A stretch of 64,000 nucleotides of DNA from assembly GCA_963781585.1 (NCBI GenBank), contig CAWAGQ010000013.1, positions 288,001-352,000 of the forward strand. The letters run 5' to 3'. Origin of the DNA: an uncultured Gemmatimonadaceae bacterium. Its GTDB lineage: Bacteria; Gemmatimonadota; Gemmatimonadetes; Gemmatimonadales; Gemmatimonadaceae. The notes under the pieces were generated by a model. It searched no databases, was not told the origin of the DNA, and saw only the letters and a program-made list of their open reading frames with translations. The first letter of the stretch is position 1. Every line of letters starts with the position of its first letter. Shown one piece after another: positions 26,468 through 50,131 of the stretch. A program made the translations under genes and the position numbers.

Positions 26468-26648
26468 CGGAGCGGCGAGGCCGGCGCGGCTTGCAGATGC
26501 CGGTGAGCCGCAGCGCCTCGTCCGCAGCGGGCGTGGGCATCGAACGCAGCGCTCCGCGGGAGGGGAGCGCCCAGCATGCGATTGCGGCGGGCCGATACCG
26601 ACATCAGAATGTCGCGTGTGGTAGTTTTCCAACGCACCGAGCGCCGCC
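26468..26648 (-). mobile_element. Remnant of the 5' end of an ISCR-like transposase and its upstream region
   Basis: Collinear similarity to 46952-47128 (AGCGGCGAGGCC..CGGCGCGGCTTG..GGGAGCGCC.AGCAT.CG..CAGAA.GTCGCG..TTCCA.CGCA); encodes GICKPRRP vs GVYKPRRP. Confidence 0.7.
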
Positions 26649-26739
26649 GCTTACCGTGCTTGCTGCTGACGATCGGGTCCAGGAACCCCGCTGCGCTCGC
26701 GATGGCGTGATCGCCTCGCAGCAGAAGCTGTCGTTAGGC
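26649..26739 (+). other. attC site (R'' degenerate), same family as attC 47129
   Basis: GCTTACC GTGCTTGCTGCTGACGA...TCGCAGCAGAAGC...GTTAGGC. Confidence 0.75.
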
Positions 26740-26776
26740 AGCCGGTGGCGCGCCGAGCAGCCAGACGGGGACTGAA

Positions 26777-26944
26777 ATGAGAAGCCAGACCAGCACCGCA
26801 CTCTACGTAGTGTTGATGGCAGCCGTGATCGTCGCGATCGATGTGTTGTTCTTCAGGAACCGGTTCTGGGAACGGCTAACGGTGAACGTAGGAATCGTCC
26901 TGGTATTCGCAGCCTTCTACTTCAGATTCCTGACACGTCCATGA
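26777..26944 (+). CDS. 55-aa two-helix membrane protein (cassette; absent from ORF track)
   Basis: Manual translation MRSQTSTALYVVLMAAVIVAIDVLFFRNRFWERLTVNVGIVLVFAAFYFRFLTRP*; GGGGA upstream; follows R'. Confidence 0.65.
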   Translation: MRSQTSTALYVVLMAAVIVAIDVLFFRNRFWERLTVNVGIVLVFAAFYFRFLTRP

Positions 26945-27047
26945 CTATGGCGGAGGGCTCACGTGTGGCGATAGTTGGCCGCACCCGCTGCTTAACGCCT
27001 GGTGGTTGGGCCGGCAGGCCCACACATCAACTCTGAGAGGATGGGAC

Positions 27048-28527
27048 ATGCCTCCTGGACTCCGACAACTATTCAAGGGAACCCTGCTGCTCGCCTGCGC
27101 TACTGCTCAGACAGCGGCTCAGACGCCGGCGCTCTCGACGGCGCCAGTCGGGCAGCGGGATCTGTCCGAGTATGAGGGGCTCTACAACTACCGCGACGGT
27201 GGCAGGTTGTCCATCGTCGCAGGCGGCGACCGACTGGTGGCAGTCATCGGCGGAGCGAAGTATCGGCTTCGTGCCGCGGGCGTGGACACGTTCACGAACC
27301 CCGGAGGTGACCCGATTCCCTTTTTGCGTGACGCCAACGGTCGGATCGTGGCCTTCAAGGAGCACGATGATACGTTTCGGAGGCGCTCATCGAGCGTGCC
27401 GGTGTCCGTGCGGCTGCTGTTCGAGCCGCGTCCGAAGGACGCGGCAGGACGGCCGGTCGTCTACCATTACGCACCGCCCCGGCAGCTTGCGGACGGTATT
27501 CGCGCCGGCGTGGCTGGATCGGACACTCTCTGGCCGGCGGTTGCGGGGCGGCTCGTAGACGGCGTCATGGATCGGCACGTACCCCGATGTGCATTCGATC
27601 CTCGTCTATCACAAGGGTGCGTTTCGACTCGAGGAGTACTTCTACGGCTACAATCGCGATCGGCCGCACCAGATGCGCTCCCTCACCAAGAGCGTGATCT
27701 CGCTGCTTGCCGGAGTGGCCGTGGACCGGGGACTGCTCCGCGCCGATGAACCCGTGCTCGGGCAGCTCGGCTATCCGGCCTACCGGAATCCCGATGCTCG
27801 CAAGGGGCGAGTGACGCTGACGGACCTCCTGAGTAACCAGTCGGGCTTCGCCTGTGACGACCACGACGACGCTTCGCCGGGCAATGAGGTGAAGCTGTAC
27901 GACACGCCGGATTGGGTGAAGGCGTTCGTCGATCTGCCCATGGTGGCCGATCCGGGCACCGTCGGACGCTACTGCTCCGGCGGCATTCTCACGGCAGGCC
28001 GAATCGTCGAACGCGCGGCGGGCAAGTCCCTGCCGGCTTTCGCGCAGGAGGCCTTGTTCGGGCCGCTCGGTATTCAACGATCCGAGTGGCACTGGGACTT
28101 CAGGCTCGATCGCAGCCAGCGCAATGAGTTCGGGCAGATCTACCTCACGCCCCGTGACATGCTGAAGCTCGGGATCCTCATCCAGCGCCGCGGGGAGTGG
28201 GGAAACCGGCGGGTTGTGTCCACCACATGGATCGACGCCGCCGTTGCCCGGCAGTCGCATGTCGACGACAGCGACTACGGCCTGGGGATCTGGCATCGCT
28301 GGTACCGCGTGCAGGCGCGAAGCGGGGACCGCCGCGTCGACACCATCATGCTCTCGGGGAACGGCGGCCAGAAGGTGTATCTCGTTCCGTCCCTCGATCT
28401 GATCGTCGTATTCACGGGAGGTGCCTACAACACGGAGTCGCCTGCGAACGAGATGATGGCAGGGGTGCTCCTGCCGGCGCTGATTGAGGCCGAGGCGACC
28501 ATGTTGCGCCCCTCGGGTGGCGGCTGA
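27048..28527 (+). pseudogene. Serine hydrolase (beta-lactamase class C-like family), frameshift ~27570
   Basis: Signal peptide in one frame; SLTK (SxxK), YCS and LSGNGGQ in the next frame. Confidence 0.75.
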
Positions 28528-28734
28528 GCGACAGGTCGTTAGGCTGCGGTAACAATCCTACGCACATGGCAATTGCAGGCGTCCGCCGCCTATGCGGCGA
28601 ATTCGGGCCAGTTTCTGAAGAACACATTTCCCCCGAAGGGAGGCTTCTGTTCGTTGCAGTCGCGATTGACTCATTCGACTGGCGTCAGCAGTCGCGGGGG
28701 ATACTGTGCCCTTGACCGTTAGGCTTTGGGAGGA

Positions 28735-28821
28735 AACGTTACAGCCGACAAGCCGCACACGAGCGTAGTTGGACTTCCAGGTTCAGCCCGCGGCTTGCGG
28801 GTGAACGTCAAGCCGTTAGGC
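28735..28821 (+). other. attC lacking a clear R''
   Basis: ACGTTACAGCCGACAAGCCGC.../GCGGCTTGCGGGTGAACGT...GTTAGGC (28815). Confidence 0.6.
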
Positions 28822-28842
28822 ATACGCATCAAGGACGTAATC

Positions 28843-29193
28843 ATGACGTCTGCTTCCATGTGGCCGGCGGAGCTCGACGCCCTCGTGGCGGCCCCCGCGC
28901 AGCATCGGCTGTTGCTGGAGAATGACAGGGTGCGCGTGCTGGACACGCGTATCGCTCCGGGTGAACGCACACCAGTGCACACGCACCAATGGCCTGCCGC
29001 ACACTACGTCGTGAGTTGGAGCGCGTTCGTACGGCGCGACGCCGAGGGCGCTGTGCTGCTGGATACCCGCGCAACCGCTGGCGCGCCAAGCCCGCCTTCC
29101 GCGCTCTGGGGTGAACCGCTCGCGCCGCATTCGCTGGAAAACGTCGGGCCAACGCCACTGCATGTCATCAGTGTCGAGCTGAAGACCGGGTGA
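28843..29193 (+). CDS. Cupin-domain protein (cassette)
   Basis: LLENDRVRVLDTRIAPGERTPVHTH...HSLENVG..LHVISVELK; AAGGA RBS. Confidence 0.82.
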   Translation: MTSASMWPAELDALVAAPAQHRLLLENDRVRVLDTRIAPGERTPVHTHQWPAAHYVVSWSAFVRRDAEGAVLLDTRATAGAPSPPSALWGEPLAPHSLENVGPTPLHVISVELKTG

Positions 29194-29299
29194 CTGACCT
29201 GCGGGCGTTGATGACGCATTTCACACGGTCGCTGCCGGCGAACCTGGATGCCGAAGATGATCGCTGGCTCGTGACAATCCTCGCCGCGAGACCTCCCGC

Positions 29300-29869
29300 G
29301 TGAACGCCCGCCTCCCGGGACTGCTCGCACTGATCTGCTGTTGCGCCCAGGCGTCGGCGCAAGCGGGGAGGTGCCCGACGATCGAGCGCGCGGCCACGAT
29401 CGAGCGGATCGGCGCGTTCTCGAACACGCGCTACCGCGACGAGCACGCGTACGGCTATTCGGTGATGCTGTGGCGAGCCGGGGATTGCGTGTTCGGCCTG
29501 TTCGAATCCGCCCAGGGGCTCGCCGAGGACACACCGATCGGCGAGTTGCGCGACGTTACCTTTGACCGCCTTTCCGGTCTCCTGACGTTCTCGGCGAAGC
29601 TGACGACCGGGCTCACGACCACGCGCGGGTCGAACGCACTCGTACCCGCGCACGACCTGTTCTCGTTCAGCGGCACGCTGCAGGCGGACACGCTCAGGGG
29701 GGAGATCTCCCACGCCCTTGCCAACGAGCCGGGGGTCGCGGTGGCACGCACCACGGTCGTGCTTCCGGCGTCGAGCACGGCTGCCGAGCTGATGCTCGAC
29801 GCCGCGTCGTACGCGGACTGGGTGACGGCGTGGGAGCCGATCCTGAAGCGCCGCGGGCCGAAGTGGTAG
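29300..29869 (+). CDS. Hypothetical secreted protein
   Basis: Signal-peptide-like N-terminus; coding-like composition; fits between neighbouring genes. Confidence 0.55.
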
Positions 29870-29915
29870 CCCGCCGGCGTTATGTCGATGCGCACTGCCT
29901 AACAAGGAGGTCCCG

Positions 29916-30401
29916 ATGAGCCCAAAAAAGAACAGGCAACAATCCGCCCAGACCGCCACCCCGGTGAACAAGCGGTCCAGGGGGTTCACAGACCCCGAAC
30001 GAATCGCGATGAAGGAGCGCGCCCATGAGCTGAAGTCCGACGCGCGACGCGGCCCGCGCGCGGACCAGGCGGATGGGGAAGGCGACGTGCTCGCGAAGAT
30101 TGCCGAGATGCCGGAACCGGATCGCATCATGGCCCGGCGGCTCCACGCGATCATCAAAGCCAGCGCGCCGACTCTCTCGCCGAAAACCTGGTACGGGATG
30201 CCCGCGTATGCGAAAGACGGAAACGTCGTCTGCTTCTTCCAAAGCGCGCAGAAGTTCAAGACGAGGTACGCAACGTTCGGGTTCAGCGACAATTCGAACC
30301 TCGACGACGGCGCGATGTGGCCCACGTCGTTCGCGCTGAAGCAATTGACCGCCACCGAAGAAGCCAGGATCGTCGCGCTCGTGAAGAAGGCCGTCAGTTG
30401 A
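29916..30401 (+). CDS. DUF1801/YdhG-like protein
   Basis: [47 protein letters not shown]...MWPTSFAL. Confidence 0.85.
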
Positions 30402-30510
30402 GGTTTGCGGCACCTGCTCGTGATGGCGCCGTCAGCCGCAATCGGTGGCATTCTTCGCACGGGCCAACCAGCTCGGCAGACGAAGCGACCTGCCTGACGA
30501 AGCGACCCGG

Positions 30511-30948
30511 TTAGCGGGTCAGCGGCTCCAGAATCGCCACCGCGCGTCGGAGGACCTTCAGGTCCGCGGCGCTGACACCGCCGATCAGGGCTTCCATGGC
30601 GGCCAACCGTCGCGTCCGGGCGTCACGCAACACCCGTTCCCCTTCCCGGGTGGCGCGAATCCTGACCGCGCGCGCATCGTGCGGGTGCGGGGCCCGCGCT
30701 ACCAGGCGCTCCACTTCCATCGCCTGAATCAGGCGCGTCATCGTGGGCGGCCGCACGTGCTCGATGACTGCCAATTCGCCGAGCGTGCGCGGTCCTCCGC
30801 CCAGCACCAGCACCGACAGCACGGACAGTCGGGGACCGGTGATGCCGCCGCGGTCGTCGTGCCGGGCAACGCGCCGCAACAGGTGAACGGCGACCGAATG
30901 CAGCCGGTCGGCGATTGCCGCGCGGCTGTCACGGCGGGTGGACGGCAT
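30511..30948 (-). CDS. MarR family transcriptional regulator
   Basis: LSVLSVLV..GPRTLGELA..EHVRPPTMTRLI..ME..LVAR..D.R wHTH. Confidence 0.85.
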   Translation of the reverse strand: MPSTRRDSRAAIADRLHSVAVHLLRRVARHDDRGGITGPRLSVLSVLVLGGGPRTLGELAVIEHVRPPTMTRLIQAMEVERLVARAPHPHDARAVRIRATREGERVLRDARTRRLAAMEALIGGVSAADLKVLRRAVAILEPLTR

Positions 30949-31008
30949 GGGTCTCTCCGGCCGGCCCGCGCCCGGCTCCCGGGGGCTTGCGCGCCGGCGC
31001 GCTGGCGA

Positions 31009-31029
31009 TTAGTTAGGTACGCTAACTAA
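31009..31029. promoter_or_regulatory. Probable MarR operator
   Basis: TTAGTTAG-N5-CTAACTAA perfect inverted repeat between the divergent marR and ankyrin genes. Confidence 0.6.
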
Positions 31030-31098
31030 ATAACAGCGCATCGCGCCCGGCACAAGGGCACCGGGCCCGGCGCCGCGCGCGGACCCCGGGAGCACTTC

Positions 31099-31797
31099 AT
31101 GCCGACGCTGAGCGAATTGCAGGCCGCCATTCGGGCGCGCGACCTCCCACAGGTGAAGACGATACTGGCGGCCGCGCCCGCGCTGGCCGCTGAGCGCCCC
31201 GCGGGGAGTGCGAGCGCCACGCTGCTCGCGGTCTATGTGGGATCGTCGGAGATGGTGGATCTGCTGATGCCGCTGGTGACGCCCGATGCCTGCGAGGCGG
31301 CAGCGCTGGGCGCCGCCGACCGGCTGCACCAGTTGCTGGACGCAGATCCGTCGCAAGTGAACGCCAGGAGCGGTGACGGATGGACACCGCTCCATCTGGC
31401 CGGCTTCTTCGGACGACGCGAGGCGGCCGAACTGCTCCTCGCCCGGGGTGCCCCGGTCGCCGCGGTCGCCGACACTCCGGACCGGAACCAGCCGTTGCAG
31501 GCGTCGTTGTCGGGCAACCTCGACGAGGCCATCGTGCGCGCCCTCGTGGCGCACGGAGCCGACGTCAATGCCGCCGGTGCCAGCGGCGTTACCGCCCTCC
31601 ACAGCGCGGCCGCCCGCGGAAGCGAGACCATGGTGCGGTTTCTTCTGGAGCACGGCGCGCGCGCGAATGCCACGCTCGGCGACGGGCGCACCCCGGCCGA
31701 TCTCGCCGACGAGCGCGGCCACGCGGCCGTGCGCGACCTGCTGCGCGCGGTCGCCGGCGGATCGGCGGAATCGGCTCGCCAGGCCTGGGCGCCGTGA
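31099..31797 (+). CDS. Ankyrin-repeat protein
   Basis: DGWTPLHLAGFFG, GADVNA..GVTALHSAA..G, DGRTPADLA. Confidence 0.88.
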   Translation: MPTLSELQAAIRARDLPQVKTILAAAPALAAERPAGSASATLLAVYVGSSEMVDLLMPLVTPDACEAAALGAADRLHQLLDADPSQVNARSGDGWTPLHLAGFFGRREAAELLLARGAPVAAVADTPDRNQPLQASLSGNLDEAIVRALVAHGADVNAAGASGVTALHSAAARGSETMVRFLLEHGARANATLGDGRTPADLADERGHAAVRDLLRAVAGGSAESARQAWAP

Positions 31798-31903
31798 TGC
31801 GCGAGCCCAGGTGATATTGCTTTCCATTGCAAAGTACTCTATGCTATGTCCGGAGATGGCAGTCCCGTGATACCTCGAAGCCAACCCGCTCCGGAACCGC
31901 CGA

Positions 31904-32197
31904 ATGAACTGGTCGTCACTGCTGAAGCGCCCGAGCGCCTTTCTCCCCGTGGCCATGTCGCTCGCCGCACTCGCCGTCGTGCTGGGCTACCTCGCCATGT
32001 TCGGCGTCGTTCGGCAGCCCGATGAGGGAACGGCTGCACATATCTGGCAGCTGCTCATCGGCGGGCAACTGCCGATCGTGGCGTTTTTTGCGATCAAGTG
32101 GCTTCCCCGCGCTCCGAGGCAGGCGTTGCCGGTCCTGGGGCTGCAGGCCGCGGCCGGACTCGCGGCCCTTGCGCCGGTCTTTCTTCTGCACCTTTAG
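31904..32197 (+). CDS. Small conserved-looking membrane protein
   Basis: Three hydrophobic segments; DEGTAAHIWQLL motif. Confidence 0.65.
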   Translation: MNWSSLLKRPSAFLPVAMSLAALAVVLGYLAMFGVVRQPDEGTAAHIWQLLIGGQLPIVAFFAIKWLPRAPRQALPVLGLQAAAGLAALAPVFLLHL

Positions 32198-32393
32198 GCA
32201 ACGACTCCGCGAGCGACGCGCGCAGGAGTCGCCGGGACGGCTTCCGATCGAAGCCGTCGGCCGGCAGCGTTACGACATCAGAACCGGCATGACGAAGCGC
32301 GCCGCCTGGCGCTGATTCCGGGTTGCACGCCGGTGCAGGAGTACCGGTAAGCCAGGGACTGGCGCCACTTCCTGCTGAGCAGTATAAATCGCC

Positions 32394-32756
32394 ATGGCCA
32401 CGCGCGCGCTCGGCGAAGCCGAACAGCTCATCCTCTTCGCGCTCGTCGCGCTCCCCGCCGAGGAGTGCTACGGCGTCCCGATCCGCGAGCTGATCGAGCG
32501 GCGCACCGGTCGCTCGATCTCGGCGGGTGCCGTCTACACGGCGCTCGATCGCCTGGCCGCGCGCGGCTTCGTCTCCAGCCGGCTGGGCGATCCGACCGCG
32601 CAGCGTGGCGGACGGCGCAAGCGCCTCTACACTCTGGAGCGGGCCGGCGCGCAGGAACTGTCGCGGTCCTACCAGAAGCTCTCGGCGATGTCGCAGGGGC
32701 TCGTGCGCCAACTCGAGCTGCGCGCGGCGAGCCCGGCGCGCAACCGGAAGCGCTGA
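32394..32756 (+). CDS. PadR family transcriptional regulator
   Basis: LGEAEQLILFAL..YGVPIRELIE..GAVYTALDRL..RGGRRKRLY. Confidence 0.88.
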   Translation: MATRALGEAEQLILFALVALPAEECYGVPIRELIERRTGRSISAGAVYTALDRLAARGFVSSRLGDPTAQRGGRRKRLYTLERAGAQELSRSYQKLSAMSQGLVRQLELRAASPARNRKR

Positions 32757-32758
32757 TC

Positions 32759-35455: not shown

Positions 35456-35647
35456 AACTGACGTCCGCTTCCCTCGCGAGACGAAGTAACTCGTCCCCAC
35501 GCGGCACCCCGGTCCAACCGGGCGATCGAACCATCCCGCGGGCGGCGACGGTGCGCGACGACGGGCACCGACCCGGGGAACCCTTTGCCCCTGGCGCGTG
35601 GTCCAAAGAAGGCACGACACGCGTAGATTCCAGCAACTGAGACGCCG

Positions 35648-37213: not shown

Positions 37214-37297
37214 GGGCCCGGAGGCCGTCACCGGTTCGACGCGGAAGCGATCCGGGCGAACGGCGGCGCCAGTGATCGTCACCCAATCCCGGACCCA

Positions 37298-37809
37298 ATG
37301 CGACTCGTTCTTCCCGGCCTCATTCTGACTGCTGCCTGCCCGTCCTCGCGGGCGCCGCTACGCCGGGCGTGCGCGTGGCGCATTGCCGGGTGCGCGGGGT
37401 GATCGGGAGCGCGACGCGTTTCGAACTCCTCCTGCCTGACGATTGGAACCGGCGATTCGCGATGGGTGGGGGCGGCGGGTTCGGCGGCTCGGTCGAGAAC
37501 ATGGCGGAATCCAGCGTCAACTCCGGGTACGCCACTGTCGGGACGGACGCGGGTCACGAGGCGAGTGGCCTCTCGGCGAGCTGGGCGCTGCACAACGAGG
37601 AGCGGTTGACCGACTACGGGTACCGTGCCATCCACCGCACGGCGGAGGTAGCCAGGCAGCTCATTCGCGCCTATTACGGGTCGGCGCCACTCAAGTCGTT
37701 CTTCCTCGGATGTTCCAACGGCGGGCGCGAGGCACTCATGGAGGCGCAGCGGTTCCCGACGGACTTCGACGGGATCGTTGCCGTCGCGCCGTGTCCAGTA
37801 TCAGCGTGA
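37298..37809 (+). pseudogene. Tannase/feruloyl esterase N-terminal fragment
   Basis: FELLLPDDWNRRF..GGGGFGG, TDAGH, GCSNGGRE.L.EAQRFPTDFDGI, then abrupt end. Confidence 0.8.
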
Positions 37810-38104
37810 GCAGCGACGATGACGGCTCCACCATACAGCGGTGCTATCACTGCCCTGACGAGCCGCTTCGCATCGTGCAAGTGCGCGAGAATGGCCGCCG
37901 CCTCCGCCGGAACGTCGTGGAAGCACAGCGACGTCACGAGCTTTGCGGCGTCTGCAGCAAATCATGTTAGCCAGCGTCCGCCTCGTCATTTGGAGAATGG
38001 ACCCGAGCTCGTCAAATCCAATGCATCTGAAAGTCCCCACCATCGCCTGAGGACGACGGCACGGAGGAGACAGACGACCTCGTCAGGCGCATCAAGACGG
38101 CGGG

Positions 38105-38259
38105 CGCGGTGCCGGCGATGTTCACGACGTACGCGTACGGGCAAGCTCGCCGACTTCGTGATGCTCGCCGACGATCCGCACGCGGTAGATGCGGGGAAGA
38201 TCAAGGACATCGAGATCGTGCGGACGGTGGTGGGCGGGGGGACGGCGTACCAGGCGTGA
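38105..38259 (+). pseudogene. Amidohydrolase (family 3) C-terminal fragment
   Basis: GKLADFVMLADDPH....IKDIEIVRTVVGG. Confidence 0.65.
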
Positions 38260-38429
38260 GCGGCCGGCATCGCGCCCCTGGCGAAACGCTGCGGGCATTC
38301 CGGCTGTCCCACCGTGGTTCCCGGCCTGGCACGAACCGGGCTTTTGGCTTGCCTGGCGTGAATCTCCTGGTCATGCGGGTCGACCCGGTGCGCGCGGAGC
38401 GGCTCTCCGCGTCGTCGAAGAAGCGACCC

Positions 38430-38726
38430 AGGAGCACCCACGAGATCGGCGTGCGGATCGCGCTGGGCGCGACGGCGCAGCGCATCGTCGGCCTGGTCGT
38501 CGGGCGCAGCGTGGGGCTCGCCGTGGCGGGGCTCGTGGTGGGTCTGGGACTGGCACTCTGGGGAAGCCGCTACCTCGACGGGCTGCAGTTCGATACGTCC
38601 ACGCACGATCCAGCGGTCTATGGCATCGCGTCCGCGACGCTGCTGCTCGTGGCGGTGGCGGCGAGCGTCGTCCCGGCACTGCGCGCGCGGCGGGTCGATC
38701 CGGTGCGGTCCCTGAAGGCGGAATAG
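38430..38726 (+). pseudogene. ABC permease C-terminal fragment
   Basis: THEIGVRIALGA...PALRARRVDPVRSLKAE without the upstream domains. Confidence 0.7.
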
Positions 38727-38755
38727 TCGCCGGCACCCGGGCAACCCTTCAGGGG

Positions 38756-38786
38756 CATAGAGCATCTATGGCATAGATGCTCTATG
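38756..38786. promoter_or_regulatory. 15-bp perfect inverted repeat, probable operator
   Basis: CATAGAGCATCTATG-G-CATAGATGCTCTATG, 70 bp upstream of the permease gene. Confidence 0.6.
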
Positions 38787-38856
38787 GCCGTGTGGCCGGC
38801 GCCGTTGTGGCGGCGCCCGGTCGTCCGGCGAGAGCGGCTTCCCGGGAGAACCACAT

Positions 38857-41481
38857 ATGCGCGCGTTCCTGGCCCGATTGCTCGACTGGCTCCGTCGCGA
38901 CCGGATCGACGGCGAATTGCAGGAGGAGCTGACCTTTCATCGCCAGCGGCTGGAGCGCGATGCGCGCGATGCCGGCGTTCCGGAGGGACGCATCGCCGCC
39001 GCGAGCCGGCGTGCGCTGGGCTCCACGACGCGGACTCGCGAGGCCGTCCGGGAGGGCGCCTCGCTCCTCTGGCTCGACCACCTCGCGACGGACGTGCGCA
39101 TCGGCCTGCGGGCCCTGCGCCGGACACCGACGTTCACGGTGGCGGCGCTGGGGACCCTCGCGCTCGGCATCGGCGCAACGACCGTGATCTTCAGTGTCGC
39201 GTGGGCCATCTGGCTGCAACCACTTCCGTATCGCCAGCCCGATCGCCTGGTGTCGCTCGGCGACGCGTTTCGTGGCGGATCTGGCGGGACGATTTCCGTA
39301 CCGGAGGTCGACGACTACGCCCGGACCGGTGTCTTCGATGGCGTGGCGGCCTTTCAGTACGGCGCGACCATCATGAAACCGGGAGATGAACCGGTGCGGG
39401 TCCTCTCCTTCACGGTCTCGCCGAATCTCTTCGACGTGCTCGGCGTTTCTGCCCGGCTCGGTCATACGTTCACCGGTCGCGACACGATCGGCGCCGAGGC
39501 AGAGACGGTCGTGCTGAGCGATCGCCTGTGGCGGCAACGCTTTCATGCCGATACGGCCATCCTGGGACGCTCGATCGAGGCGTTCGGTGGCCTGCTGACC
39601 GTGGTCGGCGTGATGCCTGCCGAGTTTCGCTTTCCCGAGTGGCTGCCAAGCGAGATGTGGGTGCCGCGCAACTTCCGGTCGGAGGGCGGGAATCGCGGCA
39701 CGCGGTTCCTGAATGCGGTGGCCCGCCTCCGCGACGACGCGACACCCGGGCAGGTCCAGGCGGCGATGTCGGGGCTGACCCGTCAGCTCGCCGCGGATCA
39801 TCCTGACGCCAACCGGGACTGGGCCGCCACCGTCTCCCCACTGGTCGAGGGCACCGTGGGCGCCTACCGCGGCGCGTTAGGCTTCCTGCTCGGCACGGTG
39901 GGCCTGTTGTTGCTCATAGCCTGCGCCAATATCGCGAGCCTGCTCCTCGCCCGCACCACCGCGCGACGGAAGGAACTCGCCGTGCGCGTCGCGCTTGGTG
40001 CCGATCGCGCGCGCGTGACGCGTCTCGTCCTCACCGAGAGCACGCTCCTGGCCGTGCTGGGAGGAGGGCTCGGCATCCTGCTCGCCCGTCTGGGCGTTCC
40101 CCTGCTCGGAGCGCTCTTTCCGTCCTCGATCCCGCGCGCGGATCTCGTCGCGGTCAGCGCGCCGGTCATACTCTTCTCCGCACTGCTGTCGCTGGCGACC
40201 GGGATCGTGTGCGGGCTGGCACCGTCGTGGCGCGTCTCCGCGCTTGCGCCCGCTGAGGCGCTGCAGTCGGCGGGGCGCGCGATCATGGGAGCGGGCCGGC
40301 ACGGATTGCAGGAGATGCTCGTCGTGGGCGAGGTCGCCCTTTCGCTCATGCTGCTCGTCGGCGCGGGGATGATGTTGCGAAGCTTCCTCGCGCTCACGGC
40401 GCGGGACCACGGGTTCGCTCCCGCTCACGTGCTGACGATGCACATCACGCTGCCCTTCGACCGCTACGGCGACGCCAACGCCCGCCGGCAGGCGTTCGAG
40501 GATCTTGCGGCGGGGGTCCGCCGAGTGCCGGGTGTGGCGGATGCCGCCGAGGTCACCGGCTATCCGGGAAGCTCGCTCGGCTACCTGGGCGGCGGCCCGA
40601 TCGGCCCCGATCCGGGAGATCCCGCCCGGCAGGTGGTCGTGAGCTACCGCGCAAGCGGGCCGGCGTACTTTCGCACCATGCAGGCGACGCTGCTTGCGGG
40701 TCGCGACTTCGACCAGGGCGATCGCCCGGGATCGCCGAGTGTGGCCATCGTAAACCGGGAGCTCGCGGCACGCCTCTGGCCCGGTGAAGATCCGGTCGGC
40801 AGGACGCTCCGGCTTCCGGCTTCGCTGACGAACTTCCTGCCCTCGTCGTCCGTCGAGGTCGTCGGCGTGGTCGGGGACATGCGCCTCGGCGCGAAGCCCG
40901 CGGCCGACCTGTTCGTGCCGCTCGCACAGGTCCCGATGTTCTGGAGCGACCTGGTCGTGCGCGTTGCCGGCGATCCGGAAACGCACGCGAACGTGGTTCG
41001 GAGTGCGCTGCGTGCGATCGAGCCTGACCTACTCATCGAGGACGTGGCACCCATGCAACGCATCCTGGCGCGGCAGATTGCCCTGCAGCAGGTGCAGAGC
41101 GTCATCGCCGCGGTGCTGGGCGTGCTCGGATGCGTCCTCGCCGATCTCGGTCTCTTCGGATTGCTGTCGTACCTGGTAAACCGGCGGATGCCAGAATTCG
41201 GAGTGCGCATCGCCCTGGGAGCCACGCGGGCGCACATCTTCACCGCGGTACTGCATCGCGGACTGTCGCTCACCGGGGCCGGCATCACGCTCGGTGCCAT
41301 TGGCGCGTTCGGCCTGGTTCACCTGTTGCGCAATCGCCTGTTCGGCCTGCAAACGACCGACGTGCGCGTCTTCGCAGCGGCGGCCTGCTGCATGACAGCC
41401 GCTGCCATTGCCGCCTGCTGGCTCCCGGCCCGTCGTGCCACGCGCGCGCATCCCGTCGCGGCGATGCGCGTGGACGCCTGA
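38857..41481 (+). CDS. Duplicated MacB/FtsX-like ABC permease (ADOP type)
   Basis: ELQEELTFH prefix, TLALGIGATT, LLIACANIA, EFGVRIALGA, PARRATRAHP. Confidence 0.9.
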   Translation: MRAFLARLLDWLRRDRIDGELQEELTFHRQRLERDARDAGVPEGRIAAASRRALGSTTRTREAVREGASLLWLDHLATDVRIGLRALRRTPTFTVAALGTLALGIGATTVIFSVAWAIWLQPLPYRQPDRLVSLGDAFRGGSGGTISVPEVDDYARTGVFDGVAAFQYGATIMKPGDEPVRVLSFTVSPNLFDVLGVSARLGHTFTGRDTIGAEAETVVLSDRLWRQRFHADTAILGRSIEAFGGLLTVVGVMPAEFRFPEWLPSEMWVPRNFRSEGGNRGTRFLNAVARLRDDATPGQVQAAMSGLTRQLAADHPDANRDWAATVSPLVEGTVGAYRGALGFLLGTVGLLLLIACANIASLLLARTTARRKELAVRVALGADRARVTRLVLTESTLLAVLGGGLGILLARLGVPLLGALFPSSIPRADLVAVSAPVILFSALLSLATGIVCGLAPSWRVSALAPAEALQSAGRAIMGAGRHGLQEMLVVGEVALSLMLLVGAGMMLRSFLALTARDHGFAPAHVLTMHITLPFDRYGDANARRQAFEDLAAGVRRVPGVADAAEVTGYPGSSLGYLGGGPIGPDPGDPARQVVVSYRASGPAYFRTMQATLLAGRDFDQGDRPGSPSVAIVNRELAARLWPGEDPVGRTLRLPASLTNFLPSSSVEVVGVVGDMRLGAKPAADLFVPLAQVPMFWSDLVVRVAGDPETHANVVRSALRAIEPDLLIEDVAPMQRILARQIALQQVQSVIAAVLGVLGCVLADLGLFGLLSYLVNRRMPEFGVRIALGATRAHIFTAVLHRGLSLTGAGITLGAIGAFGLVHLLRNRLFGLQTTDVRVFAAAACCMTAAAIAACWLPARRATRAHPVAAMRVDA

Positions 41482-41543
41482 GGTCGCGGCCGTTGCGCGT
41501 TGATGCCTCACGACGCCGCGGGCGGGCGGGGCTGTCGGGGATA

Positions 41544-43002
41544 GGGGATAGGAAATTCAATCGCGCAGCGCCCGGAAGGTTGCGTCGGCAACTGCGGTGG
41601 GAGAGCCGCGGGTGGGGAACGCCGCGCGCGGAGGGCGCGCCGGACGCGTCCGCGGCGCGTCTGAGACGCGAGCGGGACGGGCGGTGGCGGCGACGCGCGT
41701 CGGGCGTGCCACGGTCGCGCAACCCACGCGTCCCCACGGCACTCAGCCTGAGTCATGGGGGAACGGGCAAACAGGGGTAACGCGTTAGGCGCTTTGACGC
41801 GCGGGGCGTGCCGACGCGCGGCGCGCTGTCGTGCGCGCCGTCGGCGGCGGCCCGCGGGCGGCCTCGCGGGTCCGGCGCATGTGGTCGAGGATCCGGTCGA
41901 TCCCGGCGCGCTGCGTGATGAAGGCGACGATGCGCATCTCGGCGCCGCACTGGGGGCACCGGAGCGGATCGACCTCGAAGAGCTGCCGCAGTAACTCGGC
42001 CCAGCGCCGCCGCGCCTCGCGGAGCGGGAGCGGCACCGCCTCAGCGATCGTCGTCGGTGGCGCGTCCGCGGTCGCCGCGCGCCGGGCACCGCGCACGCGA
42101 TTGGCGTAGTAGCCGTAGTAGCGCGTCATCACCTGGTGCTTGTTCGGCACGTGCGCCAGCACCCGCGCGAGAAACTCCAGCGGATCCACCGTGTCGGTCC
42201 CCGCCGTCGGCCCGTCCGCCTTGTCGGAGCGGTAGCGCACCTGGCGCGCCGGCGCATCGTACTCGAGCCGGTCGAGCGCCACGGGATTGCGCGCGCAATA
42301 CCGCGCCAAGCGCAGCGCGAAGGCCGTGTCGCCATCGGGGACCAGCACCGCATCGTGCACGTGAAAGCCCGAGTGCGGCCAGGCCAGCATCCCCTCGGCA
42401 TCTTCGTGCTCGAACAGCCCGCGCCGCACGAACAGCCGGAGCACGGCGCGACGAAACGCTTCGGTGAGCTGGGCCGTGTCGTGCGCGGGCCATGGCACGA
42501 AGGCGCCATCAGAACGGAAGCCCCCGTCGGTCGCAATCATATGAATGTGCGGATGCCAGTTGGCGAGCGATCCGTGGGTCTGGATGCAGCCCACGATGCC
42601 CACGGCGAGCGTCGGCTCTCGGGTCAGTGCGCGCACGGCGGCGGTCACCGTGCGCGCCGCGACGCGGGCGAGATCGCCCAGGAGCGAGCGGCGGTAGAGA
42701 CACCACGCGCGGAGGCGCTTGGGGATCGTGAGCACCACCTGGCGGTGCGGCACGCCGGGCGCAAGGAGCGAGTCTTCGAGCCACAACGTCCAGAGCGCCA
42801 AGCGCTTGGCGTGACAGCTCGGGCAGAAGTAGCGCGCCTTGCACGAGAAGGCGAGCAGGTACTCGTGCGCGCAGGCGTCGCAGCGCACGCGCGCGAATCC
42901 GTGCTCGAGCACGCCACACGCGAGGAACTTGTCGGCGACTTCGCGCACGACCGGGCGCCAGTCGCCATAGGTCGCGGCGAACCGCTCTTCGTACGCGGCG
43001 TG
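41544..43002 (-). mobile_element. ISCR-like element copy A, 5'-truncated (transposase remnant 41785-43002)
   Basis: Appears identical to 45460-46918 (offset 3916; six-frame ORFs match); oriIS-like end; homology stops at 43002, removing the transposase N-terminus. Confidence 0.85.
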
Positions 43003-43318
43003 CATGCCGTTCTCCCTGAGCGTGCTCTGTCGTCCCGGAGGTTGCCGGTGTGCCCGAGCAGCCCGCAAGGGGCGGCAGGCATGTCCGCGAACCTGCCTCA
43101 GCGCCCGTTCCGGTCATTCGCGGCAGCCGCGCGTCCAGCCGACATAAGCAATCTGGCGTTAACGGTGCGCATTGCCGGATTGCCCTGCGCGGTTCGCCGC
43201 AACATGATGCTGCCAGCGGCGAGCGAGTGAAGGCGACGGGCTCATTCTGCTGGAGAGGGATGCATGCCCGCCCCGTCCATCCTGGCTGCGAATGCTTCGT
43301 CGATCAACGGGAGATATC

Positions 43319-44716
43319 ATGGGCAAGAGACTCCGCTGCATCGTCGCGCTGTCGGCCGGCATGTGCCTCGGCTGCCGGGGCGCGGCCCCGCCTGCGGCCA
43401 GCGTCGCCATTACGCACGTCACCGTGATCGACGCCAGCGGCGCTGCCCCATCCCCGGATGTGACCGTGCTGATCTCGGGCAATCGCATCCAGTCGATCGG
43501 ACACGAAGCGGCGCCTGCAGGCGCCACGGTGGTGGATGGGTCGGGCAAGTATCTGATCCCGGGCCTCTGGGACATGCACATGCACGTTTCACTGCTGCGC
43601 GGACCCGCGATTCTTCCCCTCTTCCTGGCCTGGGGCATTACCGGCGTGCGCGACATGGGCTCGCCGGATTCGATCTTCGTCTGGCGCGACGAGATTGCGG
43701 CCGGCAGACGCGTCGGACCCCGCATCGTGGCTGCCGGCCTGGCGTTCGTGAACCATGCGACCGGTGCGATCACGCCCAGCACCTGGGGTCAGGGGATTAC
43801 CGATGCGGCGGCCGCGCCGCAGGCTGTAGCGCGCGTTGCGGAACACGCCGACTACGTGAAGATCCAGGATTCGTTCATGCGCAGGGACGTGTGGCATGCG
43901 CTCGCCCGCGAGGCCAGGGCACGTCGCATGCCGATTGCCGGCCACGTGCCGTTCGGCCTCGATCTCGAGGAAGCGATCGACAGTGGCCTGACCAGCATCG
44001 AGCACTCGCTCGGCCTCGCGCCCGCCTTCACGAATCGCGAGAGGGATCTGCGCAATCGCGTGCTGGTACAGAAAGACGATGCCCAACGGTACAACGCGCT
44101 GTATGCCGCGGACGCGGAGGCCGTGGCGCACATCGACAGCACGCGCGTCCGCGCGCTGGCTGCGCTCATGGTGCAGCGGGGTGTGGCGCTGGATGCCACG
44201 CTCAAGGATCTGGAATCGGAAGCCTTCGCCGCGTCCGGCCGCTGGAACGACGATCCGCGTCTCGAGGACCTGGCGCCGGACCTCGTGAACGACTGGCGCA
44301 ATCAGGGCGCCCACGATTTCAATGCGACGAGCACCGCGGATCTGCGTGTGACGTTTGCGGCCATGCCGGCACTCGTTGCACGGCTGGAGCACCTCGGCGT
44401 CATGATTCTCGCCGGTACGGATGCGGGCGCGATGTTCGATTTCCCCGCGACCGATCTGCACCGCGAGCTGGAGCTCCTGGTCGAAGGCGGGCTCACGCCC
44501 GTGGAGGCGTTGCGATCGGCCACGCTCGATCCGGCCCGTTACCTGGGACTCGCGGACTCGCTCGGGGTCATCCGCGCCGGCTACGTGGCCGATCTCGTAC
44601 TCCTCGATGCCGATCCCCTGCAGGACATCCACAACACCCGGCGCATCGCTGCGGTCATCCGCAACGGCCACGTGCTGGACCGCGCCGCGTTGGCTGGCAT
44701 GCGCGAGCGCCGGTGA
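43319..44716 (+). CDS. Amidohydrolase family lipoprotein
   Basis: IPGLWDMHMH (HxH), SIEH, AGTD, GYVADLVLLDADPL; CLGC lipobox-like. Confidence 0.88.
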   Translation: MGKRLRCIVALSAGMCLGCRGAAPPAASVAITHVTVIDASGAAPSPDVTVLISGNRIQSIGHEAAPAGATVVDGSGKYLIPGLWDMHMHVSLLRGPAILPLFLAWGITGVRDMGSPDSIFVWRDEIAAGRRVGPRIVAAGLAFVNHATGAITPSTWGQGITDAAAAPQAVARVAEHADYVKIQDSFMRRDVWHALAREARARRMPIAGHVPFGLDLEEAIDSGLTSIEHSLGLAPAFTNRERDLRNRVLVQKDDAQRYNALYAADAEAVAHIDSTRVRALAALMVQRGVALDATLKDLESEAFAASGRWNDDPRLEDLAPDLVNDWRNQGAHDFNATSTADLRVTFAAMPALVARLEHLGVMILAGTDAGAMFDFPATDLHRELELLVEGGLTPVEALRSATLDPARYLGLADSLGVIRAGYVADLVLLDADPLQDIHNTRRIAAVIRNGHVLDRAALAGMRERR

Positions 44717-44757
44717 TGCCGTGACCGGCAGCCCGCGACGGGTCTAACCGTATACTA

Positions 44758-45459
44758 TCAACGCGCCAGCAGGCGGACGGACAATCCGCCGTTCGAGGTC
44801 GCGAACAGCTCGAGCAGTGCCGGGTCGGGAGGCAGTCGCTCGGGCTGGAGCAGTGCGAGCCGCCATTCGCGCAGGGGTCCGCGCTCCAGCGCGTTCAGCT
44901 CAGCGAGCACGGCGAGGGCCGTGTTGCGCTCGCCCGTGCGCACGCCGTAGGGCGGGTTGGTGACCAGCCAGCCGGGCTCTGCGGGCGCCACGACGGCGGA
45001 AAGCGGTCGCACCGCGAACTCGATGTCATCGAGCACACCGGCGCGCGCGGCATTCTCCTTCGCCGCCCGGATGGCCCCGCCGTTCCGATCGGAGGCGACG
45101 ATACGCGTTCCGCTCCGTTCCCGCACCTGCGCTCTCGCATCGTCCACCACCTGCCGCCAGAGCGCAAGATCGAAGCCCGGCCATTGCGTGAAGGCGAACG
45201 CGCGCGGCTGCCGCTCGGCGCCGGCGATGCCGGGCGCAATGTTGCGGGCCAGCAGCGCGGCCTCGATGGCGATCGTGCCGGAGCCGCAGAGCGGGTCGAG
45301 CAGCGGCGCGCGCGGATCCCACGCCGAGGCCAGCAGCATCGCAGCGGCCAGCGTCTCACGCAGTGGCGCTTTCGCGAGTGCCTGACGGTACCCGCGCCGG
45401 TGCAGCAGCGCGCCCGACGCATCCGCGCGCACGAGGCAGCGGTCGCGCAGGAAGCGGAC
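44758..45459 (-). pseudogene. 3' half of an RlmL/THUMP-type RNA methyltransferase, cut by the ISCR-like ori end
   Basis: DASG.LLHRRGYR...APLRETLAAAML, LDPLCGSGTIAIEAA, VTNPPYG; 5' part replaced by the element. Confidence 0.8.
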
Positions 45460-47128
45460 GGGGATAGGAAATTCAATCGCGCAGCGCCCGGAAGGTTGCG
45501 TCGGCAACTGCGGTGGGAGAGCCGCGGGTGGGGAACGCCGCGCGCGGAGGGCGCGCCGGACGCGTCCGCGGCGCGTCTGAGACGCGAGCGGGACGGGCGG
45601 TGGCGGCGACGCGCGTCGGGCGTGCCACGGTCGCGCAACCCACGCGTCCCCACGGCACTCAGCCTGAGTCATGGGGGAACGGGCAAACAGGGGTAACGCG
45701 TTAGGCGCTTTGACGCGCGGGGCGTGCCGACGCGCGGCGCGCTGTCGTGCGCGCCGTCGGCGGCGGCCCGCGGGCGGCCTCGCGGGTCCGGCGCATGTGG
45801 TCGAGGATCCGGTCGATCCCGGCGCGCTGCGTGATGAAGGCGACGATGCGCATCTCGGCGCCGCACTGGGGGCACCGGAGCGGATCGACCTCGAAGAGCT
45901 GCCGCAGTAACTCGGCCCAGCGCCGCCGCGCCTCGCGGAGCGGGAGCGGCACCGCCTCAGCGATCGTCGTCGGTGGCGCGTCCGCGGTCGCCGCGCGCCG
46001 GGCACCGCGCACGCGATTGGCGTAGTAGCCGTAGTAGCGCGTCATCACCTGGTGCTTGTTCGGCACGTGCGCCAGCACCCGCGCGAGAAACTCCAGCGGA
46101 TCCACCGTGTCGGTCCCCGCCGTCGGCCCGTCCGCCTTGTCGGAGCGGTAGCGCACCTGGCGCGCCGGCGCATCGTACTCGAGCCGGTCGAGCGCCACGG
46201 GATTGCGCGCGCAATACCGCGCCAAGCGCAGCGCGAAGGCCGTGTCGCCATCGGGGACCAGCACCGCATCGTGCACGTGAAAGCCCGAGTGCGGCCAGGC
46301 CAGCATCCCCTCGGCATCTTCGTGCTCGAACAGCCCGCGCCGCACGAACAGCCGGAGCACGGCGCGACGAAACGCTTCGGTGAGCTGGGCCGTGTCGTGC
46401 GCGGGCCATGGCACGAAGGCGCCATCAGAACGGAAGCCCCCGTCGGTCGCAATCATATGAATGTGCGGATGCCAGTTGGCGAGCGATCCGTGGGTCTGGA
46501 TGCAGCCCACGATGCCCACGGCGAGCGTCGGCTCTCGGGTCAGTGCGCGCACGGCGGCGGTCACCGTGCGCGCCGCGACGCGGGCGAGATCGCCCAGGAG
46601 CGAGCGGCGGTAGAGACACCACGCGCGGAGGCGCTTGGGGATCGTGAGCACCACCTGGCGGTGCGGCACGCCGGGCGCAAGGAGCGAGTCTTCGAGCCAC
46701 AACGTCCAGAGCGCCAAGCGCTTGGCGTGACAGCTCGGGCAGAAGTAGCGCGCCTTGCACGAGAAGGCGAGCAGGTACTCGTGCGCGCAGGCGTCGCAGC
46801 GCACGCGCGCGAATCCGTGCTCGAGCACGCCACACGCGAGGAACTTGTCGGCGACTTCGCGCACGACCGGGCGCCAGTCGCCATAGGTCGCGGCGAACCG
46901 CTCTTCGTACGCGGCGTGAAACGCGCGGAAGTGGTCGCTCACGAGGCGAAACAGCGGCGAGGCCTGCGGGCGGCGCGGCTTGTAAACGCCCGGCGCCACG
47001 CATGCGGGGACCGCGGACATCGCGCACGGCGCTCCGAAGCACGGGAGCGCCGAGCATACGCCCATCGCGGGCGGACGCCGTCACCAGAAGGTCGCGCGCA
47101 GTGCCGTTCCAGCGCATGTCGCGCCGCG
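45460..47128 (-). mobile_element. ISCR-like (IS91-related rolling-circle) element copy B
   Basis: Downstream end reads CGATTGAATTTCCTATCCCC on the minus strand, similar to ISCR oriIS (...TTGAACTTCCTATACCC); upstream end abuts an attC. Confidence 0.8.
45701..47020 (-). CDS. ISCR/IS91-family transposase
   Basis: CGVLEHGFARVRC, FSCKARYFCPSC, HRQVVLTIPKRLR, HPHIH (HUH), HSGFHV, LARYCAR, RYYGYYAN, RGPP. Confidence 0.92.
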   Translation of the reverse strand: MSAVPACVAPGVYKPRRPQASPLFRLVSDHFRAFHAAYEERFAATYGDWRPVVREVADKFLACGVLEHGFARVRCDACAHEYLLAFSCKARYFCPSCHAKRLALWTLWLEDSLLAPGVPHRQVVLTIPKRLRAWCLYRRSLLGDLARVAARTVTAAVRALTREPTLAVGIVGCIQTHGSLANWHPHIHMIATDGGFRSDGAFVPWPAHDTAQLTEAFRRAVLRLFVRRGLFEHEDAEGMLAWPHSGFHVHDAVLVPDGDTAFALRLARYCARNPVALDRLEYDAPARQVRYRSDKADGPTAGTDTVDPLEFLARVLAHVPNKHQVMTRYYGYYANRVRGARRAATADAPPTTIAEAVPLPLREARRRWAELLRQLFEVDPLRCPQCGAEMRIVAFITQRAGIDRILDHMRRTREAARGPPPTARTTARRASARPARQSA

Positions 47129-47219
47129 GCCTAACGGTGCTTGCTGCTGACGAGCGGCTTGCGGAGACTCGCTGCGCTCGCGATGATGTGACCGCTCGCA
47201 GCAGAAGCTGGCGTTAGGC
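47129..47219 (+). other. attC site
   Basis: R'' GCCTAAC, GCTTGCTGCTGACGAGCGG/CCGCTCGCAGCAGAAGC stem with extrahelical bases, R' GTTAGGC. Confidence 0.88.
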
Positions 47220-47332
47220 ACACGACTCATCGGCGCGGGTGCGATCCCGAAAGAGTTGACAGGGGAGGCGGCGGCATCGCCTTCCCAACTGTGCCGGACC
47301 GCTATATTACGGTAGTCTCACCGGAGCGCGTC

Positions 47333-47569
47333 ATGACTGCCCCCGCCCGCGTAATCCATAGCGATCCCCAGATCTTGGGCGGCACGCCTGTGTTTGTCGG
47401 TACTCGCGTGCCGGCTCAGTCCCTCTTTGACTACCTTGAGGGGGGCGAGACCCTGGACGAGTTTCTGCGCCAGTTTCCGTCGGTAACCCGGGAGCAGGCC
47501 GTGGCGGCCCTGGACCTGGCGCGTGACACCCTCCTCGCCGCCGTTCCGGCCGGTGCGCATACTCCTTGA
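47333..47569 (+). CDS. DUF433 antitoxin
   Basis: IHSDPQILGGTPVFVGTRVP...LEGGETLDEFLRQFPSVTREQ. Confidence 0.9.
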   Translation: MTAPARVIHSDPQILGGTPVFVGTRVPAQSLFDYLEGGETLDEFLRQFPSVTREQAVAALDLARDTLLAAVPAGAHTP

Positions 47570-47873: not shown

Positions 47874-47962
47874 CAGACAAATGCAGACTGCCGGCGGTTG
47901 CTGCGTAGCGGCTTTGCCGCTCTGATGATAGAAACCGCCGCACTTGATTCGTAGCGTTAGAT
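47868..47962 (+). other. attC site
   Basis: GCCTAAC...GGCGGTT/AACCGCC and AGCGGC/GCCGCT stems...GTTAGAT; GTGCCTAAC complements the cassette start GTTAGGCAC (47213). Confidence 0.78.
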
Positions 47963-50110: not shown

Positions 50111-50131
50111 AGTCTGAATCTCGTGCTCGCT

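Follow-up and report, generated by a model that had tools for sequence, protein, structure and literature searches.

Insertion sequences (ISs) of the IS91 family, such as IS91, IS801, and IS1294, encode an HUH-Y2 transposase with a zinc-binding N-terminal domain and are inserted between unrelated flanks. Their origin end (ori) lies downstream of the transposase gene, tnpA, and their terminal end (ter) lies upstream of it, where one imperfect subterminal palindrome stands beside a GTT-containing cleavage site. In the account given in PMC13181058, the terIS of IS91, IS801, and IS1294 is a single imperfect subterminal palindrome by a CTCG or GTTC cleavage site. Here, we describe an element of this architecture in a 64,000-nucleotide (nt) stretch of DNA, hereafter the window, from an uncultured Gemmatimonadaceae bacterium (GCA_963781585.1, contig CAWAGQ010000013.1, positions 288,001-352,000 of the forward strand; 67% G+C). 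Unlike those of IS91, IS801, and IS1294, its palindrome is about 90 nt long, resembles the attC site of integron cassettes and appears to have had cassettes recombined onto it, and tandem ori ends are common in its family. The reading that we favor, with a probability of roughly 0.7, is an IS91-family insertion sequence specific to Gemmatimonadota whose ter palindrome doubles as an attC-type site and whose ter hairpin is the starting point of cassette arrays.

Several described systems come close to this arrangement. The ISCRs, notably ISCR28 in sul4 modules, are likewise IS91-related rolling-circle elements that lie beside integron DNA. They are defined by the absence of a recognisable ter end, whereas the present element has one and falls below the cut-off of the ISCR clade Ia model; the juxtaposition noted for ISCR28 was read as passive shuffling within cassettes and not as the element's own end. 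With attC sites and integrase-less clusters of them (CALINs), the locus shares the core sites, bulges on the R''-side arm, a variable loop, crossover at G|TT, one open reading frame (ORF) or toxin-antitoxin pair per unit, and a single orientation. It differs from them in that the first site of the array is a transposon end inherited with a transposase gene, with no attI or canonical intI nearby. The ISShvi3/ISAzo26-type IS91 elements carry an IntI-like tyrosine recombinase and small ter hairpins, and their inverted repeats supply the R' and R'' of the flanking attCs, a layout shared by an additional element of the window (19563-21998) and by a Salinivibrio copy; the element in question is, in contrast, recombinase-free and carries a complete attC-like palindrome. 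The IS1111-attC elements and group IIC-attC introns are also mobile and tied to attC hairpins, but they insert into existing attCs, whereas the hairpin described here travels with its element.

In a full-text literature search, no paper was found in which the ter end of an IS91-family element is taken for an attC or for the start of a cassette array; the only related passages were passing remarks on ISCR28 and ISShvi3. IS91-family elements and attC sites or CALINs are both known already; their combination is what is new. The origin and movement of integrase-less attC clusters and the origin of attC itself are open questions in integron biology. A transposon with a working attC-type ter end would be a ready-made landing pad for cassettes wherever it is inserted, and the frequent overrun of ter in IS91 suggests a plausible vehicle for whole cassette arrays. 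For annotators, it is a warning that what looks like the leading 'attC' of an array may be the end of a transposon, and the published notes on ISCR28 and ISShvi3 beside attCs raise the possibility of the same link in integrons of clinical relevance.

The element, its copies and its two ends

Twenty homologues of the transposase were aligned, and a genome scan with this alignment gave 79 loci (designated by L numbers), in 61 of which the match reaches the transposase N-terminus. The tnpA product of the intact copy matches the Pfam domains Y2_Tnp (4.8e-27) and Zn_Tnp_IS91 (2.1e-19). It passes the NCBIfam IS91 model NF033538 with 177.2 bits (cut-off 125) and fails the ISCR clade Ia model NF052416 with 145.2 bits (cut-off 925). 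Across the 20 homologues, H199/H201/H203 of the H-x-H-x-H motif are invariant and Y344/Y345/Y348 of the Y-Y-x-x-Y motif nearly so. The relatives of the transposase belong almost all to Gemmatimonadota, and a search of plasmids returned no close one, the best being at most 37% identical. An initial annotation of this stretch had called the element ISCR-like; that identity was dropped, since the element misses the ISCR clade Ia cut-off and is bounded by a conserved ter hairpin.

The features of the window are collected in Table 1. In a MAFFT alignment, 26478-26742 (locus 1) and 46960-47221 (locus 2) are collinear homologues that comprise the tnpA 5' end, the leader, and an imperfect palindrome of about 91 nt bounded by GCCTAAC and GTTAGGC; in self-blastn, 26549-26740 and 47029-47220 are 75.9% identical over 195 nt (E 8e-20). 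The homology ends just past GTTAGGC, and the DNA downstream is unrelated, with an ORF of 55 amino acids (26777-26944) at locus 1 and a DUF433/PIN-like toxin-antitoxin pair (47291-47873) at locus 2. The cores of copy B, the intact copy at locus 2, lie at 47129-47135 (GCCTAAC) and 47213-47219 (GTTAGGC). In the relic hairpin of locus 1 (26649-26739), R'' has decayed to GCTTACC (26649-26655) while GTTAGGC persists at 26733-26739, and the covariance model R1, introduced below, still matches it with 71.5 bits (E 3.3e-18). The collinearity of the two loci and the positions of their cores had been recognised in the initial annotation and are confirmed. Its 'transposase 5' end' at locus 1 is indeed one, but it amounts to a relic of about 105 nt, and both a third copy and a fourth, unrelated IS91-family gene (19786-20952, 28.6% identical to tnpA) had gone unreported. 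The third, copy A, equals 45460-46918 at 100% over 1459 nt in self-blastn and is devoid of the tnpA 5' end, the leader, and the hairpin. Locus 1 is a decayed copy inside a cassette array, and locus 2 is an intact copy that heads one.

Table 1. Features of the window, with coordinates counted from its first nucleotide.
Feature	Position	Strand	Basis or remark
Copy B, intact IS91-family insertion sequence, ~1.76 kb	45460..47221	-	ori end 45460, ter hairpin 47219-47221
tnpA, 454 aa, HUH-Y2 rolling-circle transposase	45701..47065	-	Pfam Y2_Tnp, Zn_Tnp_IS91; NCBIfam IS91
terIS subterminal palindrome / attC-type site	47129..47219	+	fold, covariation, junction match
Copy A, truncated third copy (ori end and most of tnpA)	41544..43002	-	self-blastn, translation
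Relic of diverged copy, locus 1 (first ~105 nt of tnpA, leader, ter hairpin)	26478..26742	-
DNA between copies A and B	43003..45459	.	Pfam; junction sequences
Amidohydrolase gene between copies A and B	43292-44713	+	Pfam
RMKL-like methyltransferase fragment	44761-45459	-	Pfam; cut by copy B ori end
Cassette array without integrase, directly behind copy B	47217..52496	+	R1, Pfam
attC of DUF433/PIN-like pair	47868-47962	+	weak R1 match
ORFs in copy B array	48035-49761	+	array content
attC in copy B array	50132-50229	+	R1
attC of MazE/MazF	52403-52496	+	R1
attC after DUF1801/OmdA cassette, solitary	25274..25357	+	R1; sequence
attC with R'' GTTCAAC = ISAzo26-type ter-side terminal inverted repeat	21992..22085	+	R1; heads 22-29 kb array
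Short attC, R' GTTGAAC = ISAzo26-type ori-side repeat	19512-19569		sequence
Solitary site found by R1	52400-52499	+	42.7 bits, E 6e-10
Solitary site found by R1	50129-50232	+	37.5 bits, E 1.9e-8
Solitary site found by R1	21989-22088	+	24.6 bits, E 9.6e-5
Solitary site found by R1	25272-25360	+	21.6 bits, E 7e-4
Solitary site found by R1	47865-47965	+	13.2 bits, E 0.17 (weak)
ISAzo26-type IS91-family element, unrelated to copies A/B	19563..21998	-	NCBIfam IS91; inverted repeats
tnpA of ISAzo26-type element	19786-20952		NCBIfam IS91, 353 bits
IntI-like tyrosine recombinase, 301 aa	21003-21905		TIGR02249 best family

The two loci lie 20 kb apart in the same orientation, as would be expected of one old duplication in this genome without wider meaning. 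The initial annotation had itself raised this possibility, and it is refuted by the 27 loci that share the arrangement, which come from numerous independent assemblies, a complete chromosome among them; we give it practically no weight. Of the complete genomes with such elements, NZ_CP050872.1 carries L015, L022, L040, and L047. The same 27 of the 79 loci bear out the proposal of a rolling-circle family with an attC-like ter end and many independent examples.

The ori end of copy B, GGGGATAGGAAATTC at 45460, agrees with the family consensus GATTGAAATTCCTATCC. Almost no matches were obtained when blastn was used for the ori region across the loci, and the conserved end was located by a motif search, in which an end of the GATTGAAATTCCTATCC type lies about 280-415 nt beyond the end of the transposase match and is present in most loci that reach the C-terminus. 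In the window, the ori ends start at 41544 (copy A) and 45460 (copy B). Both ends were mapped in 18 elements, which are mostly 1754-1800 bp long, three being shorter. For the IS91 family, one would expect insertion without target-site duplication and a tetranucleotide target beside ori. The flank pairs of the 18 elements show no obvious target-site duplication, and the ori-adjacent bases often end in CG or AC, with an uncertainty of 2-4 nt in the ends. Tandem duplication of the ori end, at a distance of 13-90 nt, is seen in L006, L017, L032, L044, L053, and L063, and copy A is preceded by a 7-nt partial ori repeat, GGGGATA (window 41537-41550).

At the opposite end, the copy B hairpin reads on the + strand as R'' GCCTAAC, a small internal loop, the stem, a variable loop, and R' GTTAGGC. 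The stem of 17 bp (4 + 6 + 7) is interrupted on its 5' arm (+ strand) by two bulged bases, G and A. The predicted fold has -32.8 kcal/mol (z = -5.3), which none of 200 shuffled sequences equalled; for the relic hairpin, z is -1.0, and 29 of 200 shuffles were as good. The covariance model R1 was trained on 22 such hairpins, all of them IS-borne. With this model, 27 of the 79 loci (26 of the 61 that reach the N-terminus) prove to have the hairpin immediately upstream of tnpA, at a constant spacing of about 65 nt from the proximal GTTAGGC to the start codon. Past the hairpin, the DNA is unrelated between loci, save for the orthologous pair L016/L017. In the 22 copies, 97.7% of stem positions are paired, with compensatory changes at three pairs (19 cells). 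None of 500 shuffles attains the covariation score, and slid-alignment controls pair in 28-48% of cells versus 93% for the hairpin. The loop varies among hairpin types while the stems covary, and the proximal core GTTAGGC is kept in 20 of the 22 aligned copies, the exceptions being L073 and the decayed relic of the window. Between unrelated flanks, the elements of L011 and L012 share exactly 1780 bp, which run from the hairpin to the ori end, at 99.9% identity. The hairpin thus belongs to the element, where the initial annotation had seen an attC to which the element was joined. As judged from sequence, it is part of the element and forms its ter end, with a predicted cleavage site.

In five more loci, just the hairpin arm next to tnpA is retained. 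Two of these, L033 and L047, have an identical foreign end sequence in place of the distal arm, swapped in at the same loop position about 130 nt upstream of tnpA; in L047, this sequence adjoins an IS3-family (rve) transposase gene. The pattern hints at an IS that targets the hairpin.

Two features adjoin the copies in the window. Between 41544 and 47221, two 100% identical IS copies in tandem flank an amidohydrolase gene and a cut RMKL-like methyltransferase gene. Replication from the ori of copy A through the passenger DNA to the ter of copy B would make this an ISCR-like composite; the tandem of identical copies could also be an assembly artefact. Directly to the left of the relic, an ORF of 279 amino acids (25588-26427) encodes a C-terminal FtsX domain alone and resembles a piece of the large MacB-like permease genes at 32465, 38857, and 56107. 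The deletion that took the IS body of the relic may have cut this FtsX gene too.

The ter hairpin compared with attC sites

The ter hairpin has the anatomy of an attC: inverted RYYYAAC/GTTRRRY cores, extrahelical bases on the R''-side arm, and a variable terminal loop. The extrahelical bases of canonical attCs are T and G, and the bulges of the IS hairpin, G and A, differ from these. A regular-expression and fold scan for RYYYAAC...GTTRRRY hairpins returned the copy B hairpin only, and a second fold scan for attCs gave mostly noise; the covariance model was used instead. Rfam has no family for the hairpin, and nothing in 21900-53000 matches an Rfam family at its gathering threshold. The motif GTTAGGC occurs 18 times on the + strand of the window and seven times on the - strand.

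R1, trained on IS-borne copies, also detects solitary sites. Those in the window, four significant and one weak, lie away from this transposase and have the same polarity as the IS hairpin. Among the scanned loci, R1 gave 15 further solitary matches, of which 12 are on the ter side in the orientation of the IS (two each in L012, L047, and L048, three in L022, and one each in L013, L040, and L061) and three are on the ori side, where the attC-like matches of L066 and L077 are in IS orientation and that of L056 is inverted. The IS-adjacent hairpins score 71-108 bits and the solitary sites 20-77 bits, with the top solitary scores at L012 2103-2198 (77 bits) and L040 300-396 (71 bits). These matches show the IS hairpin to be homologous in sequence to the local attCs.

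Homology of this kind could also arise if the IS had no hairpin of its own and, in the manner of IS1111-attC elements and group IIC-attC introns, targeted existing attCs, always at the same point beside R''. Mobile elements that invade attCs are known (PMC9229058); an ISAzo26-type element in the window does lie between two attCs, and the best solitary sites, in L012 and L040, come near the scores of the IS-borne hairpins. An attC, however, always follows its cassette, and the ori side of an IS inserted in this way should show cassettes and attCs; an attC-like match is seen there only in L066 and L077 and, inverted, in L056. In none of the 18 elements with both ends mapped does a GTTRRRY core directly abut the ori end, and the ori end of copy B cuts a methyltransferase gene. 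From these three observations we conclude that the IS did not land inside arrays. The difference in R1 scores between IS-adjacent and solitary hairpins, the way in which hairpin types mostly follow transposase clades, and the shared hairpin of L011 and L012 amid unrelated flanks likewise speak against attC targeting, which we regard as distinctly unlikely. The idea that the IS is itself a cassette within the arrays was considered as well and rejected on the same count of 0/18.

Cassette junctions and arrays behind the hairpin

The arrays lie mainly on the ter side. The one behind copy B also holds an M28 peptidase gene, and with three R1 matches plus the IS hairpin, in a part of the window (43-56 kb) in which Pfam reveals no recombinase, it is a CALIN; L022 likewise has three attCs plus the IS hairpin. 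The units between the attCs of the window are small ORFs or toxin-antitoxin pairs on the + strand, which is the attC top strand, and those of L022 are BrnT/BrnA, ParE/antitoxin, and HigB/HTH. That integrase-less attC clusters adjoin these elements was already part of the initial annotation and holds. The 736-bp HigB/HTH cassette recurs with 99% identity in two different genomes (L022 566-1301 and L061 1463-2198), and its ends are the crossover points. L022 also holds a second, partial copy of this cassette, of 205 bp.

In integron arrays, the bases past G|TT belong to the next cassette and consequently complement the R'' of that cassette's attC. This signature can be followed behind the IS hairpins. 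In L022, the bases match the next attC over runs of 7, 7, and 6 nt versus 1, 1, and 1 nt for the site's own R''. Copy B reads GTTAGGCAC, and its next attC starts GGTGCCTAAC, which matches the bases after G|TT. Of 26 IS hairpins, 10 have an exact 9-mer (GTT plus 6) that recurs as an R'' in their own ter-side flank, 315-965 nt away. Among control pairs with the flanks of other loci, five of 648 showed such a closure, and in the wrong orientation there was one in 26. The closures fall on R1 matches in L013, L022, and copy B and on a closed hairpin fold in L038 and L066; for the five others, the fold script gave no closed hairpin, one being cut by a contig end. The excess over the controls argues for insertion of cassettes at the IS hairpin by site-specific recombination. 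In addition, pairing in the outer R boxes is lost in 4-10 of about 22 copies, each time through a change on the distal side, which gives these sites the look of hybrid R' boxes. The last R' of the copy B array, GTTAGGCCGC, is the reverse complement of the R'' of the IS, GCGGCCTAAC, as would be expected if the 5.3-kb array had been inserted into the IS hairpin. We interpret the junctions, on their sequences, as showing that cassettes, or the distal part of an array, are recombined onto the IS hairpin.

An ordinary IS91 terIS, whose likeness to attC and whose adjoining arrays are a coincidence or reflect a shared preference for GTT hairpins, would need no recombination at all. A palindrome by a GTTC-like cleavage site, as PMC13181058 gives for the ter of the IS91 family, could alone explain a hairpin that ends in GTT, and 16 of the 26 IS hairpins are without exact closure. 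Coincidence, however, does not account for closure in 10 of 26 hairpins versus 5/648 control pairs, for the hybrid R' boxes, for outer R-box pairs that are broken in 4-10 copies while the inner stem stays 97.7% paired, or for a model built from IS hairpins that finds solitary attCs with E values down to 6e-10. This explanation is, in our view, very unlikely.

These results reverse or revise several proposals of the initial annotation. It had the element docking into arrays, but the cassettes are joined on its ter side at G|TT, and 0/18 ori ends have an abutting GTTRRRY. It had the element carrying off downstream cassettes, but the 27 flanks compared hold no instance of the IS with the same cassette in two contexts, and near-identical copies have different neighbours. 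It regarded the process as integrase-independent, but hybrid R' junctions imply a site-specific strand exchange of some sort.

The strand exchange could be the work of the HUH transposase itself, which would cut and rejoin all the hairpins, the arrays being products of single-stranded circle excision and insertion. This would be the integrase-independent shuttle of the initial annotation in its most extreme form. IS91 makes single-stranded circles, and Table 3 of PMC13181058 puts read-through of its ter at 11-53% of events. Cutting of one strand behind GTT would likewise produce hybrid R' boxes, every attC in the arrays resembles the ter site, and no Int/IntI-like gene is present in the fetched flanks of the 79 loci (up to 3 kb on each side). 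That search, however, spanned about 3 kb around each IS and not whole genomes, and arrays with attCs of the same type also exist away from this IS, for example at 22-29 kb of the window. Elsewhere, arrays of this architecture are attributed to integron integrases. A transposase acting on its own is, on these grounds, an unlikely source of the arrays.

In the mechanism favored here, the IS would move by rolling-circle transposition from its conserved ori end (…TTCCTATCC) to its ter end. The ter palindrome of this lineage is built like an attC of the host integrons, with RYYYAAC/GTTRRRY cores, bulges on the R'' arm, and a variable loop. Site-specific strand exchange at the hairpin's G|TT would have inserted cassettes or fused arrays, and integrase-less arrays would as a result begin at a transposon ter hairpin. 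The top-strand fold may serve the transposase in termination and the bottom-strand fold an integron-type recombinase supplied in trans, and read-through of ter, known for IS91, could carry docked cassettes along. A broader version, in which one hairpin serves two single-stranded DNA machineries (transposase termination on one strand, integron-type recombination on the other), IS91 elements found, extend, and sometimes move arrays, attC and the IS91 ter palindrome, both hairpins with a GTT core, may have a common origin, and the transposase possibly exchanges cassettes, is tentative and, taken as a whole, rather doubtful.

A number of observations weigh against the favored reading. A full hairpin is absent in 35 of the 61 loci that reach the N-terminus, among them the whole subclade L003-L010, which has another upstream region, and all nine outgroup rows of the transposase tree (a quick version). 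The initial annotation had suggested comparing hairpins with transposases, and the outcome is mixed: hairpin types mostly track the transposase clades in the quick tree, but hairpin and transposase distances are uncorrelated overall (Spearman 0.10, a value equalled or exceeded in 422 of 2000 permutations). In L019, a type-A hairpin (589-685), the type of the window clade, is paired with the leader and transposase of clade II, which suggests that the hairpin can be exchanged as a module. In three plasmid loci scanned, the Vibrionaceae attCs of L082 included, R1 gave no significant match (best 11.6 bits, E 0.2), and it is anatomy and the signatures at the junctions that speak for equivalence to canonical attCs. 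Neither the window nor the flanks of the 79 loci contained a canonical integron integrase. Closure of whole arrays is not significant across loci (2/25 versus 14/598 controls). None of the 27 ter-side flanks compared shows the IS with the same cassette in two contexts, and the near-identical copies of L011/L012 and of L022/L023 have different first neighbours, which indicates that the IS can move without cassettes; L016 and L017 share 2.8 kb on the ter side and not the ori flank, which is ambiguous as to co-mobilisation. Strand choice is a further point. The single-stranded transposition intermediate of IS91 is described in PMC13181058 as the 'bottom' strand. By replication from ori to ter, it is the strand antisense to tnpA, which is here the attC top strand. 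Integron integrases prefer the attC strand other than the top strand. The circle would therefore not be their preferred substrate, and transposase and integrase would each act on a different strand of the palindrome.

The second IS91-type element and neighbouring features

The ISAzo26-type element of the window is bounded by 17-bp inverted repeats (19563-19579 and 21982-21998) that match at 16 of 17 positions. Its tyrosine recombinase (21003-21905), the sole one detected in the window, scores best with the integron integrase model TIGR02249, at 201.5 bits, under the cut-off of 265. The nearest solved structure is that of IntI4 (2a3v), and about 32 residues are missing at the IntI-specific insertion. 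With a recombinase that scores below the TIGR02249 cut-off and is without the IntI-specific insertion region, the window holds no complete integron. The recombinase belongs to a very large family, with E <= 1e-20 for 7999 of the 8000 candidates scored, and in all seven plasmid homologues examined, one of them annotated ISAzo26, an IS91 transposase gene follows the recombinase.

In the eight copies, that of the window and the seven from plasmids, the repeats end in or near GT(T/C)CAA(C/T). The same layout between attCs is found on a Salinivibrio plasmid (L082 3836-6180), with a 10-nt cassette closure behind the element, and the short attC at 19512-19569 recurs with 92% identity in the Gemmatimonadota locus L065 (515-579). 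The element may have been inserted after the R'' of a single attC or at a GTT|AAC junction between two attCs. In L086 (529-2500), an ISAzo26-type element has a group II intron reverse transcriptase gene immediately upstream, and the ter-end sequence of the element stops at GTT.

Just to the left of the ISAzo26-type element, the window holds a defence island of lower G+C (11265-19390, G+C 0.61-0.63), which contains a Thoeris pair (ThsB-TIR and ThsA-Macro), an SNF2/PLD helicase-nuclease, and an Eco57I/MmeI-like methyltransferase. Among the cassette genes, one of the beta-lactamase family (serine hydrolase) is split into two overlapping frames, 27006-27749 and 27589-28527, and the split is a frameshift or a sequencing error.

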